Shown here: in pieces, positions 2,088 through 56,935 of the stretch
Numbering within the stretch: the first letter of the stretch is position 1
Layout of the letters: every line of letters starts with the position of its first letter
Source of the DNA: Eledone cirrhosa
Lineage: Eukaryota
NCBI GenBank assembly: GCA_964016885.1
Contig: OZ024747.1
Location: forward strand, 74,710,001 to 74,774,000
Direction of reading: 5' to 3'
DNA length: 64,000 nt
The notes under the pieces: generated by a model
The model's database searches: none
What the model was told of the DNA's origin: nothing
What the model saw: only the letters and a program-made list of their open reading frames with translations
Translations under genes and position numbers: made by a program

Positions 2088-4126
2088 TGGTTAAGATATT
2101 TTATGATAAATTTAAACATTTATTCTTGGGGAAAAGTGAAAGAACCACTAACAGGAATGAAACCATGTATCTGTCACATACTGAATAACCATATAAACTA
2201 CTACACAAAGAGGATCTGACAGCTTTGCAATGTTGAATGTTACATAGCTAAATGTCTTCTCAAATGACAATTACCTCCAGTCATATCAACAAACAACCAT
2301 TGGATATGGATCTGTCATTTAACTATTATGGGATAAATAAACCAACACAATATACAGGGGGAGTCATAAGTAACAGGGCAGTCAACGCATTTTTATTTCA
2401 AGGTTCACAGATAACGTTTGAGCATCCACTTATTTTGTGTAATCAGCCATGGTCATAATTTTTTAGCAACTTTTGTTTAATGTATTTATATTTTTGTAAT
2501 ACATGACCAGAATTTTTGTAAATAATATCATTGGACTTCCCCATTACATATGACTCACTCTGTATATATTATTTTACAAAGGAAATGGTGGTAGTCACTT
2601 TAACATTCCCACTGTACTTCACTTTTCAGTCTAAAGAGGTGAATTACAATCAAAATATTGAAGTCATTACAACCTTTATCTTTGTAAAATATAATCTATA
2701 CTCTGCTATAAGTTTTGAATGGTCATTCAGTTAATGTCTAACTCTTTTTGGGTATAATTATATATAAAACACAAACATTAAATTAACCTACATATTTGAA
2801 TACACTCACACACACACATATATATATATAATCATAATTTTACATCTGATTCTCCGTGCTAGCATATCTATATATATATATATACATACATGTGTGTGGG
2901 AGTGTGTGTGTGTGTGTATTATCATTATTTATACAGCATTTTTTACATGCTGACATGGGTTGAACAGGACTTTTTCAGGCAATGTTTTACAAGATAGTAA
3001 AGTGAGGTTACTGACCTCCCAAACACAAACTAAAGGGTCCTCCAAATTCCTTTGTTTGGCAAGCTTTCTATGGCTGGATGCCCTTCCTGTCACCAACCAC
3101 TTTACAGCATGTACTGGACGTGTTCATCATGTAGATCACCAACACTATAAATAATATTCTATTATTACTAATCTCTGAGCTTTTACAGCCTCTGTTGTTT
3201 GCACTGAAAGAAAAACAATGTTCTCACTAATTTGTTTACCAAATTGCAGTTTGATTTATGTTGTCTTTCATGCAGCCATATCAGTATTTCCATACTCTTC
3301 CTTTTTTATCACTAAACGCTAGCAACCATGCATAATTATAAATGCATAATTCAAAATATCTGCAAGCTATTTTAAAATATATAACATTTGTTGTATTTGT
3401 ATTTTGTGTCAGAGGCAGTTTCATATAAAAATAAAAATAACAATGTTAAAAAATACAAAGTCTTGGATAAAGTATTTACAATTTTTTTTATCTTTACATC
3501 TAAAATTAATATACTCTGAAGTTAATGTTACTTTTCCCTCCTTCTCCTCTTCATCGTTATTCCAGTATGACTAATCACTTAAGCAAACAAAACATACATG
3601 CAATACTGGTCTCATATTACTGATTAATATATGATAGAACGCTTTGCTATCATGAAGGCTTGGCCCCCTTTGACTTCCACATGAATAACCTTTGAAAGAG
3701 GGCCTTAGAAAAACGCTATATTTCATATGATAAACTGTTGGATCTGATAATGCATGACTGGCTGTGATATGACGTCATTTTTCCATGAGATCTCTTCAGA
3801 GTCCATCCAGCACCTAGAAGTTTCCACACAACTAGGCACGTTGCTAGACAAAAGAAGACTGTATTGATTGTTGAATCATGTGATTTCCTACACAAAATCT
3901 ACAGATGGGAAAACTGAACTAGAAGTTTATTTCTATTCAATATATTTCTAATTTCTTTGTGATTTTAGCCACAAATATTTAACATTTGTAACTTTTTTTT
4001 TTCACAACGAATACGTTTATATGTATATATGCCATATATATATATATATATATGATTTATATGGCTGGGGGGTTATTAAAATAAATTTGTTGAATTCTGT
4101 AGTATATATATATATATATATATATA

Positions 4127-13051: not shown

Positions 13052-13343
13052 ACAATATTAAATAATAATAATAGCGTAAACCTCTTCAAATGAAGTCGAT
13101 GTTTATTATGGTATGTCGAATCTATTTATCTATAAAACTGTTTATATTGTATTTTGTCTGATGAAGGCATAGCATATTGTTAATATGATATCCCCGAAAT
13201 ATATATAATGAAATAAATATGGTTTTATAAATATAGTTTTCCATTTATTTAATATTGTAAATATACTCCAAATATTTGTCGAGTGCTTTTATATCAGTTA
13301 TAAATATTTACTAGTTGTAACCCAACAATTTTAAATATAACTT

Positions 13344-13380: not shown

Positions 13381-13514
13381 ATAATAATAAATTTGAAGAC
13401 TAAAATCCAAAGAGGGCTCGATAAGGATAAATATATATCAAATATATAAGAACCGTAGAGCAAATATTTAATAAAATAACAGATTAAACTTTAATCTGTT
13501 ATTTTAATAAATAT
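13378..13514 (-). mobile_element. Probable 3' end of another PLE-type family with a terminal foldback
   Basis: Unique segment between (TA)n tracts; 25-bp-arm palindrome at 13464-13514; minus-strand ATCGAGCCC resembles the GTCGAGTGC/ATTGAGTAC motif near the other PLE ends. Confidence 0.4.
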
Positions 13515-13520
13515 ATATAT

Positions 13521-13714
13521 AACGAAGGAAATGTGGTAAGGAACCAGGTGGACCATAACGCACCAAAGTACTCAATACTTAGGGTAGTAGAGTGGGTAAT
13601 AGGAACGAGTAGGACCCCGACGGCTGAGCTCAAGCCGTTTCAACGGCTAATTCTGGACTGAATTAGCCGTCGAAACGGCTTGAGTTCAGCCGTCGGGGTC
13701 CTACTCATTCCTAT
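13521..13714 (-). mobile_element. Short hairpin element (putative PLE 3' end with half hammerhead), copy A
   Basis: Homologous to 23313-23521; ~55-bp-arm hairpin 13599-13714; (TA)n flanks. Confidence 0.7.
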
Positions 13715-13815
13715 ATATGTATATATGTATATATATATGTATATATGTATATATGTATATATATATGTGTATATATATGTGTGTGTATATGTGTGTGTGT
13801 GTGCGAGTGTATATA

Positions 13816-17820: not shown

Positions 17821-19265
17821 TGAATTAGTACTGGATGTATTGTTTTGGAAGTAATTCATGTAACAATTTTTGAATACACAAAAAGGAAATTTAAGAACAG
17901 ATGAATATAATTCAGTAAAAAGATGGGATGGTCAGGGTTAGAATGTCTGTGATATCAGGTCTCCTTGATGAATCTTTTCTAACATAATGTCAAACAATCA
18001 ACAAACTTCATATCAATAGAGCTGTTGGCATCTGGGAATTAGTTTTCTCTTCAGCATCATAAAAGCCCATGACTTGGAGATATATTTTTTTTAAAAGAAG
18101 CTGGAAATACTTGTGAGTAAAGACATATATATATCAGGGTTTTACCAGTTTTAAACTAGTAAGACCATTATTTAGCAGATTACTCAATACCTGGGATAGT
18201 AGAATGTAAATATCTGGAATTTGCTGTCAAAATGTCTAGAGCTCAGCTATTGGACCCAAACTCTCTAATATATATATATTCCTTATTTTGAGGTTACTAT
18301 ACCCATATATTCAGAACCCAATATATATATATATATGTATAATGGAAGGAATGATACTTTAAAGATAAAAATATGTTGCTGACGCATGAAACTAAATATA
18401 AAAACAAAATTCGATATGATTCTACATTATAGATTCCTGCCTATGTTATATCTAAATATTACATTTTAGTATGGTAAGTTCTTATTTATGATAAAGATAA
18501 GCAGACAGATCCATTTTATTACTACTGAAAGATTCGAGATAGTGAATCAATAGAAATATTTTATCTTCACTCTGATCAACACAAACACACTAATGTCAAC
18601 TTTAATAGATATTCTTGTATAGATGAATCACTTAAAGTTGTAGACAGAACTTTTTATAAATGTTTCTGTTGCAGTGCTGATAAAAACACCCTTTGAGTCA
18701 ATGAAGGATCGAGCTTCTATGTGGTCACTTAACTTGCTAGATATAGCAGTCAAATATCCTTCGAACCCTTCCCTATCATCCTAAATAAAATGAAGGAAAG
18801 ACACATTGACTAATGTAATAATAGCCAAATTTCCTTCAAATCACACCTTTTAAAAAAGAGAGGTTTATAACATAATACCAGACATATATAAAGAGGCAAA
18901 GGTTATGGCTGGTGCAGTTTTAATCATAAATCTTCTTAACAAGAAAACAATAATATTACATATATGCAGTGACTCTACTTGCTGGAAATAGCAGACAAAT
19001 TTCCCTCAAATCATATCTTACTTTTTTAAAAGAGAAAGGCATATTGGACAATGTAAACATATATATATATATATATATAAAGAGGAGACGGTCATGGGTA
19101 GAAGACTTTAGATCATATGTCTGTTCAGTCAGGAATGAATTGGAGTTTAACAACAATAATTCCATCTCCTTATCTAATTCAGATCGTAACATTTATATAA
19201 ATAGAGCACATTTCTTTAGACACTCCTCCTCACTCTGCCCCCCCCCCCCTCTCTCTCTCTTTCTC

Positions 19266-23312: not shown

Positions 23313-23521
23313 AACGAAGGAATTGTGGTAAGGAACCAGATGGACCATAACGCACCAGAGTGCTCAATACTTAGGGTAGTAGAGTGGGTAATAGGAAAAT
23401 GTATGACCCCGACGGCAGAGCTCAAGCCGTTTCGACGACTATTTCTGGACGAGAAATAGCCGTCCAGAAATAGCAGTCGAAACGGCTTGAGCTCTGCTGT
23501 TGGGATCATACATTTTCCTAT
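23313..23521 (-). mobile_element. Short hairpin element, copy B
   Basis: Homologous to 13521-13714; ~60-bp-arm hairpin 23391-23521; (TA)n flanks. Confidence 0.7.
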
Positions 23522-28925: not shown

Positions 28926-28991
28926 TATTTTGTCTGAGGAAGGCATAGCATATTGTTAATATGATATCCCCGAAATATATATAATGAAATA
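28926..28991 (+). ncRNA. Type I hammerhead ribozyme in PLE pLTR
   Basis: Stem I UAUUUUGU/AUGAAAUA, core CUGAGGA, long stem II (CAUAUU/AAUAUG), GAAA, 2-bp stem III with palindromic AUAU loop, AUA triplet. Confidence 0.8.
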
Positions 28992-29028
28992 AATATGGTT
29001 TTATAAATATAGTTTCCATTTATTTAAT

Positions 29029-43389: not shown

Positions 43390-43465
43390 TGACATACATG
43401 GGAGTCAAACCTACATCTTTGGTTATCCAGACCACTGTGCTACCATTACACCAACACATCACCCG
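43390..43465 (-). pseudogene. tRNA-like remnant (probable SINE head)
   Basis: Minus strand TGGTGTAATGGTAGCAC..GGTTTGACTCC (A and B boxes); no complete cloverleaf. Confidence 0.5.
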
Positions 43466-56235: not shown

Positions 56236-56619
56236 GGCCATGTTCACTGAAAGTGATGGAATGTAATTATGCCCTTAGGTTATAAGTTTCCAATGTGCCA
56301 AACAAGGAGTCACTTCCTTTATAATGGTGAAAGGGACAAAGGAATATCTTTAACTTTATACAGAACAAATATCTCCAGTCTTCTCACTAATGTTTATATC
56401 CTTCACCAATATACATAGCTAAATATATACACATTTTTGCCGTACCTTCCCCTTCTCCCTCTTTATCTTTCTATTTCATCTTTTATTTCTCATTCTGTCT
56501 TCTGATGAAGGACTAGTGTCTGAAACATTGATTCTTTTCCTACTATATCAAGCATCAAACTAATATATTTCTTCATTATACTGTCTTTTGCTTTGTTATT
56601 TGAGTTTAATTTTTGCATG

Positions 56620-56763: not shown

Positions 56764-56830
56764 TCTTTCTAATTTCCAGTAACTTTGAACTGTGTTCTCA
56801 CACTACTATGGTTTTGAAACCTTATATCCT

Positions 56831-56868
<38 letters not shown>

Positions 56869-56935
56869 AGGATATAAGGTTTCAAAACCATAGTATTGTG
56901 AGAACACAGTTCAAAGTTACTGGAAATTAGAAAGA
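56764..56935. repeat. Near-perfect palindrome centred on (TA)n
   Basis: ~70-bp unique arms with one mismatch. Confidence 0.95.

Follow-up and report, generated by a model that had tools for sequence, protein, structure and literature searches.

A Penelope-like retrotransposon (PLE) has left tens of thousands of short copies of its end, arranged head to head, and the hairpin described here is one of them. It lies in a 64,000-nucleotide stretch of Eledone cirrhosa DNA, which we call the window. As a single locus it is ordinary; it is the family-wide record that makes an open question testable. We consider it likely that the hairpin is a 5'-truncated, head-to-head pLTR insertion, in which one RNA was copied twice by the element's reverse transcriptase (RT), from two internal sites, and the cDNA ends were then joined. 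A broader reading, on which we are evenly divided, is that the genome holds a fossil record of PLE RNA processing: a hammerhead ribozyme with a U3:A8 core cleaves in vivo, its 3' product and RNAs capped in loop II are each copied twice, and such twin priming makes the inverted pLTRs and the one-sided tails. In vivo cleavage by PLE hammerheads and the origin of inverted pLTRs and tails are both called open in the sections of PMC8557442, PMC4209133 and PMC11167929 that take up these matters. Earlier papers already describe inverted truncated copies, tails, (TA)n targets and U3-A8 cores. The mechanistic record is what is new here, and searches of the open-access literature turned up no PLE copies described as stopping at a hammerhead cut site, or at a start site within the ribozyme.

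The window hairpin and its copies

The palindrome is real. Its arms, 13599-13653 and 13660-13714, pair at 52 of 55 positions around the loop TGGACT and, as the preliminary description had it, each strand carries GAAA, a 6-bp stem III and a GUC triplet, while CUGANGA is absent (no CTGA.GA on either strand of 13400-13800). The plus strand reads GAAAC (13672), GGCT, TGAGTTC, AGCC, GTC (13694), GGGGTC; the minus strand is the same except for TGAGCTC, and TTGAAAC for TCGAAAC (13642). Folding 13500-13760 gives -141 kcal/mol (z -16.2, with 0 of 200 shuffles as good), values to which the TA flank contributes. Two particulars needed revision. The apex, first placed at the stem II hairpin, is located in loop II. 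The element, first drawn as 13521-13714, is genuine, with its extent corrected to 13521-13711 between TA repeats and an 81-nt tail on one arm only; the TAT at 13712-13714 is common to the hairpin arm and the target repeat.

We number the parent sequence from the A of TTT/AGTCCAG in loop II (+1), which puts GAAA at +19 to +22, C17 at +41 and the two 3' ends at +58 and +139. On this scale the window copy is minus-strand +1 to +139 joined blunt to plus-strand +7 to +58 (Table 1). The 5' half of the hammerhead core is missing from both arms, so the half that is present presumably cannot cleave alone. That half, GAAA..GUC, does belong to a genuine type I hammerhead, and its suggested origin in a PLE pLTR is upheld by the identity of the tailed arm to long copies (Table 1), which assigns the window copy to subfamily B. 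In the 3.0-Gb genome the repeat family has 2,434 candidates, the best 40 of them at 96-100%, and a 31-nt tail motif has 24,666 exact matches.

Table 1. Positions in the window of the hairpin, its parts, its targets and its relatives
Feature	Position	Strand	Description and basis
Tailed arm	13521..13659	-	Parent pLTR +1 (13659) to +139 (13521); 137/139 identical to long copies L193 and L179, same subfamily
81-nt tail, +59 to +139	13521..13601	-	On a single arm only; in tandem copies continues into the open frame
Tail-less inverted arm	13660..13711	+	Parent +7 to +58
Arm junction CTGGACT/GAATTAG	13654..13665	.	Blunt +1/+7 joint within loop II of the hammerhead, where the likely start-site wall falls; sequence, parent alignment, wall statistics
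Hammerhead 3' half, tail-less arm	13660..13699	+	Stem II 3' strand 13660-13671, GAAA 13672-13675, stem III 13675-13693, C17 13694, stem I 3' strand 13695-13699
Hammerhead 3' half, tailed arm	13614..13653	-	GAAA 13641-13638, C17 13619; C11.1 to T at 13642
Left (TA)n target	13511..13520	.	Sequence
Right (TA)n/(TATATG)n target	13712..13790	.	Sequence
Second window copy, older subfamily	23313..23521	-	82% over 235 nt; 15-nt re-copied insertion at junction
Third relative, decayed	18163..18279	.	Weak blastn matches in two pieces (E 0.018 and 0.77)

The window holds other features of the same general kind. Another repeat, bearing a canonical CTGANGA..GAAA hammerhead-like motif with a TA-palindrome stem III, occurs in three copies, at 13150-13220 and 28926-28995 on the plus strand and at 26596-26525 on the minus strand, and is likely a different PLE family. 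Decayed hammerhead-like motifs lie at 56495-56550 and 1420-1480; the first is of a family with a minimal ACGT stem III, found in L003, L096, L124 and L237. The DNA at 56806-56893 is duplicated in perfect inverted form around a central TA run, encloses no element and may be a repaired PLE nick. Rfam over the window returned only microsatellite-driven miRNA matches and tRNA-like matches; a tRNA-like match at 43390-43460 (minus strand) is above the gathering score (39.3 bits) and is perhaps the head of a SINE.

A parent element with a variant hammerhead

The long parent copies were reached by walking outward from one of the CTGANGA matches described below, which carried extra sequence. Judged by its sequence, the parent is a young Hydra-clade PLE. 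A full copy, L211, has a 3,118-bp unit with a 786-codon open frame, a single ORF in which RT is followed by a C-terminal GIY-YIG (YRDD and YIG..DFKTR were identified by eye). The protein has the Hydra-clade motifs RWR (RWK-like), DKT, CNCPDRSIC (CxCX5C), CNLC (CxxC) and CKH (CxH); inspection by eye found no CCHH in it. Pfam gave 0 matches to the protein, and its Atlas neighbours, at 0.96-0.99, are of similar size, some with GIY-YIG or RVT_1. Insertion into (TA)n, pLTR tandems, an inverted copy and a one-sided tail are all present in the family, as in Hydra-clade PLEs, and the arms of L211 have the anatomy of the window copy, with the tailed arm inverted and the tail-less arm direct. In L211 the open frame reaches back 68 codons beyond the first ATG, and this extension (2879-3082) crosses stem III, the cut site and the tail. 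There are at least four subfamilies, each with its own long parent.

Of the 16 pLTR-to-body junction copies that reach +7, 13 carry on upstream into a partial copy whose 5' end varies, so that +1 is mostly not where long templates end. These templates are for the most part tandem, circular or read-through, and a separate RNA pool gives rise to the short copies.

The parent was expected to have a CUGANGA core. It has UUGANAA or CUGANAA instead, and the long copies read stem I, UUGAAAA, stem II, a loop of ~31 nt, GAAA, stem III, GUC and stem I again. Across 62 intact instances, core position 8 is A in 59 and G in none; position 3 is U in 42, C in 16 and G in 4 (with three or four spurious parses among those counted); position 7 varies between A, G and U. 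Subfamily A has U3:A8 in 16 of 16 instances. In subfamily B the cores are mixed, with a C3·A8 mismatch in most. A search for parents with CTGANGA upstream gave 41 matches, and the 30 inspected were all apex or junction accidents or chimeras with other repeats. One chimera deserves a remark: at 1501-1547 of L058 the CTGATGA half of another hammerhead family is joined to the 3' half of this one at GTCGAAAC, making a complete, canonical-looking ribozyme. In another long insertion the two arms (L112 and L113) differ at core position 3, C in one and U in the other.

A known covariant core thus takes the place of canonical CUGANGA, and the rest of the type I hammerhead is there: stems I-III around a 7-nt box, GAAA, UH and a 3:8 pair (U3:A8 in subfamily A). 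Stems I-III appear in an unconstrained fold of L225, 91% of cells are paired, and a sister family alters three stem II pairs on both sides, a covariation that amounts to one evolutionary event between two families. The pairs-changed statistic did not beat shuffles (315/500), and the Rfam hammerhead models gave no match to the intact parent up to E 10. With 4,701 intact cores in this genome, the family is an abundant one that CUGANGA-based searches overlook.

Two walls for the arm ends

Arm ends are not random, as had been anticipated; they pile up at two walls, one at +7 to -8 and the other at +42. For the first wall we sampled contig C1, taking the first 90 exact matches to the tail; this sample is biased to young copies and includes two same-insertion pairs. 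Its tailed arms end at +7 to -8 in 52 cases and earlier in 30, and 8 pass; the second arms end within the same 15 nt in 48 of 68. Three regularities stand out: the 3' ends are fixed at +58 and +139, the junctions vary from copy to copy, and both arms of one insertion share a 5' limit. Since the 68 two-armed copies have 63 different types of junction, the hairpin is rebuilt at each insertion.

This bears directly on the idea that the hairpin is a self-propagating palindromic mini-element or MITE, copied whole. High copy number, a narrow length range and TA flanks are what such an element would have, and we still regard it as very improbable, given the diversity of junctions, the subfamilies with long parents of their own and the tail on one arm only. 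A MITE identity can be set aside: there is no fixed interior between terminal inverted repeats, the junction being remade in each copy, and the parent is an RT element rather than a DNA transposase. What may survive of the mini-element proposal is that short copies serve as a source of one-armed template RNA; the palindrome itself is not copied as a unit.

The preliminary description preferred another route, in which nascent cDNA snapped back on stem II and primed its own inverted arm. The predicted product (loop II, then AATAGCCG-TCGAAAC) has 0 matches against 4,701 read-through arms, which refutes the proposal for stem II. Self-priming there or elsewhere on the cDNA would account for arms that match by subfamily and share a 5' limit, and for the short re-copied pieces held in some junctions. 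It is nevertheless quite unlikely, because joints with 0-1 nt between the arms would be too tight for a priming loop, and because 12 copies have a tailed arm that lacks sequence present in the other arm. In these the tailed arm is the shorter by more than 15 nt (the count excludes eight copies flagged for alignment over-extensions, indels or ambiguity), and four clean cases show the reverse. In such copies neither arm contains the other.

We prefer two cDNAs copied from one RNA. Both target strands are very probably nicked, each priming a cDNA. RT would start at +58 and +139 on the same RNA and run to or near its 5' end, after which a few bases would be added to the cDNAs and their ends joined. 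The template's 5' end would be a cap near +1 for the window copy, a ribozyme cut at +42 for the mini-hairpins described below, or a point further upstream for long copies, with long and tandem copies drawn from RNAs that extend past +1.

What, then, is the wall at +1? It falls on TTAGT or TCAGT in loop II, and the word stands at the same place in the sister family, where the surrounding loop has diverged and where hairpins also stop near it. TTAGT/TCAGT is an initiator-like word. No DPE match was seen here. The promoter of Penelope is internal, with Inr and DPE, as given in the relevant part of PMC2377424. We incline, with rather more than half our weight, to a capped transcription start inside loop II, which would yield RNAs that carry only the 3' half of the ribozyme. 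The bases at the wall point the same way. Before +1, where the parent has T in 58 of 62, 66 distinct half copies (from the first 100 of 1,311 rows listed) have G in 19, C in 7, A in 7 and T in 33 (hand count, p 0.03). One-base spacers are G or C in 6 of 7 +1/+1 joints and A or T in 8 of 9 joints at +42 (p 0.009), the +1/+1 spacers being a hand count of 50 loci, where one pair, 760 bp apart, may represent a single event. A full-length-type copy, L221, ends at +1 with G. Extra G's at full-length LINE-1 5' ends are read as copied caps in the pertinent section of PMC4859970.

The wall might instead reflect RT slippage on the U-run, a site of processing, or the point at which short master copies have their 5' border, and a minority of our weight goes there. 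The wall is broad, its ends covering 15 nt, tandem copies are not stopped at +1, and several joints have runs of 7-13 A's beyond that point. Of the arms that get as far as +1, most extend with A's, which may be templated (-1 to -3) or added, and the commonest joint fits ends at -4, like a second end. Against these readings stand the extra G where the parent has T, the G-ended L221, the conservation of TYAGT in a loop that has otherwise diverged, and the Penelope promoter. A capped start in loop II is the reading we keep.

Other explanations and oddities came up among the joints. A splice acceptor at the wall was rejected, there being no common upstream exon among the copies seen. An end-to-end jump from +1 to the cleaved 3' end at +41 fits 1 of 14 matches within a base and 1 more within a few, and was rejected as well. 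Independent strand transfer in each arm is not favoured, long arms being usually paired (uncounted). The arms of L160 carry different subfamily marks, which suggests an occasional template switch between RNAs. In L032, L039, L044, L055 and L221 one element arm adjoins neighbouring DNA that has been duplicated in inverted form, as though the second primer had copied DNA rather than RNA. Short direct tandems of a +1 to +47 or +1 to +54 piece are found at L243-L244 and L247-L249.

The second wall, at +42, is the base after C17 and hence the predicted hammerhead cut site. Subfamily A has 191 loci with very short hairpins. Among the 100 arms of the first 50, 40 end exactly at +42, 28 are compatible with it through shared bases, 13 are short and 19 pass; 26 of the 50 loci have both arms at +42. 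Bases added at these joints are A in 23, T in 10 and C in 7. Arms that end at +42 make up ~2% of the subfamily, in which 13,072 pass. By a rough extrapolation, independent arms would give ~3 double and ~160 mixed joints, whereas our estimate is ~99 double and 17-35 mixed. Mixed +42/+1 joints are the rarer kind and lack a sharp peak: a hand count of the first 100 of 139 has 12 clear cases and ~13 ambiguous ones. This excess of double joints implies that both arms share one template end.

That end was probably left by cleavage after C17 in longer RNAs, a U3:A8 ribozyme having cut in vivo and its 3' product having been retrotransposed; from sequence evidence, the +42 class is a likely record of such cleavage. 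A competing account, which we think unlikely, has RT stall, or DNA trimmed, at the base of stem III. Stem III is indeed a 6-bp, G+C-rich hairpin with its base at +40. RT stalled there would be expected to stop at +41, whereas the clear ends are at +42. Where the partner arm reached +7 or beyond, stops spread from +42 to +27 with only a slight excess at +42, and the lack of a sharp peak on RNAs known to have run that far argues against a stall. A third family, with a minimal stem III, has mini-hairpins that end 0-2 nt from its own cut site in 3 of 3 cases, all A/T-ambiguous, which also tells against stalling. On the other side, subfamily B, which is mostly C3·A8, keeps the peak: 19 of 50 loci there have both arms at +42 (hand count). 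Joints of this kind number 98 per 11,712 passing arms in subfamily B and 191 per 13,072 in subfamily A, the direction expected from a mismatched core, in a comparison confounded by age, mixed cores and CpG decay. A mini-hairpin search in another family, with a canonical hammerhead, gave 0 matches.

Mapping the 5' ends of two-armed copies is a cheap test for any genome with young PLEs. For bench work, the family supplies an intact frame together with natural U3:A8 and C3·A8 cores.

Comparison with known systems

The nearest relatives are the Hydra-clade EN+ PLEs of Craig et al. (2021, PMC8557442). [quoted passage not shown] The core differs, being U3:A8 or C3·A8 here and CUGANGA in every Hydra row seen in supplementary file S2 of that paper. 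The tail is also longer here (81 nt against 30-40), stem III and loop II are long, and the unit is 3.1 kb.

U3-A8 is a known core variant among PLEs, recorded for Cercyon of Schistosoma in the portion of Cervera and de la Pena (2014, PMC4209133) that treats it. Cercyon elements share the core covariation and have paired hammerheads on opposite strands, 100-700 bp apart. Their hammerheads are minimal, as presented in that portion; ours folds in silico as a monomer, with a complete stem III of 6 bp.

Animal non-LTR retrozymes, as outlined in the core text of bioRxiv 10.64898/2026.07.22.740005, are likewise non-coding PLE derivatives tied to type I hammerheads. They are direct tandems with complete hammerheads, whereas the copies here are dispersed, inverted half-hammerheads. 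A retrozyme identity was rejected: direct tandem units with a complete hammerhead were not found in our family, and direct repeats of the 3' half occur in only 14 matches.

LINE-1 twin priming offers a likeness of mechanism. In the relevant section of PMC4859970, inversions come from two primers and full-length 5' ends have an extra G. The differences are that here the cDNAs overlap, they start at fixed internal sites and there is no poly(A).

The closest experimental parallel is PAc, the Poseidon element of Anolis (Frangieh et al. 2024, PMC11167929). The experiments set out in the principal sections of that paper have PAc nicking and extending both target strands at an AT-rich target, with RT starting at two internal sites that bound the tail, and in each of these respects it matches our reading of the present family. 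The same sections find cleavage dispensable for insertion, with no reads beginning at the cut site. There the two part company: PAc gave no RNA ends at its hammerhead cut site, and genomic copies of this family end exactly there.
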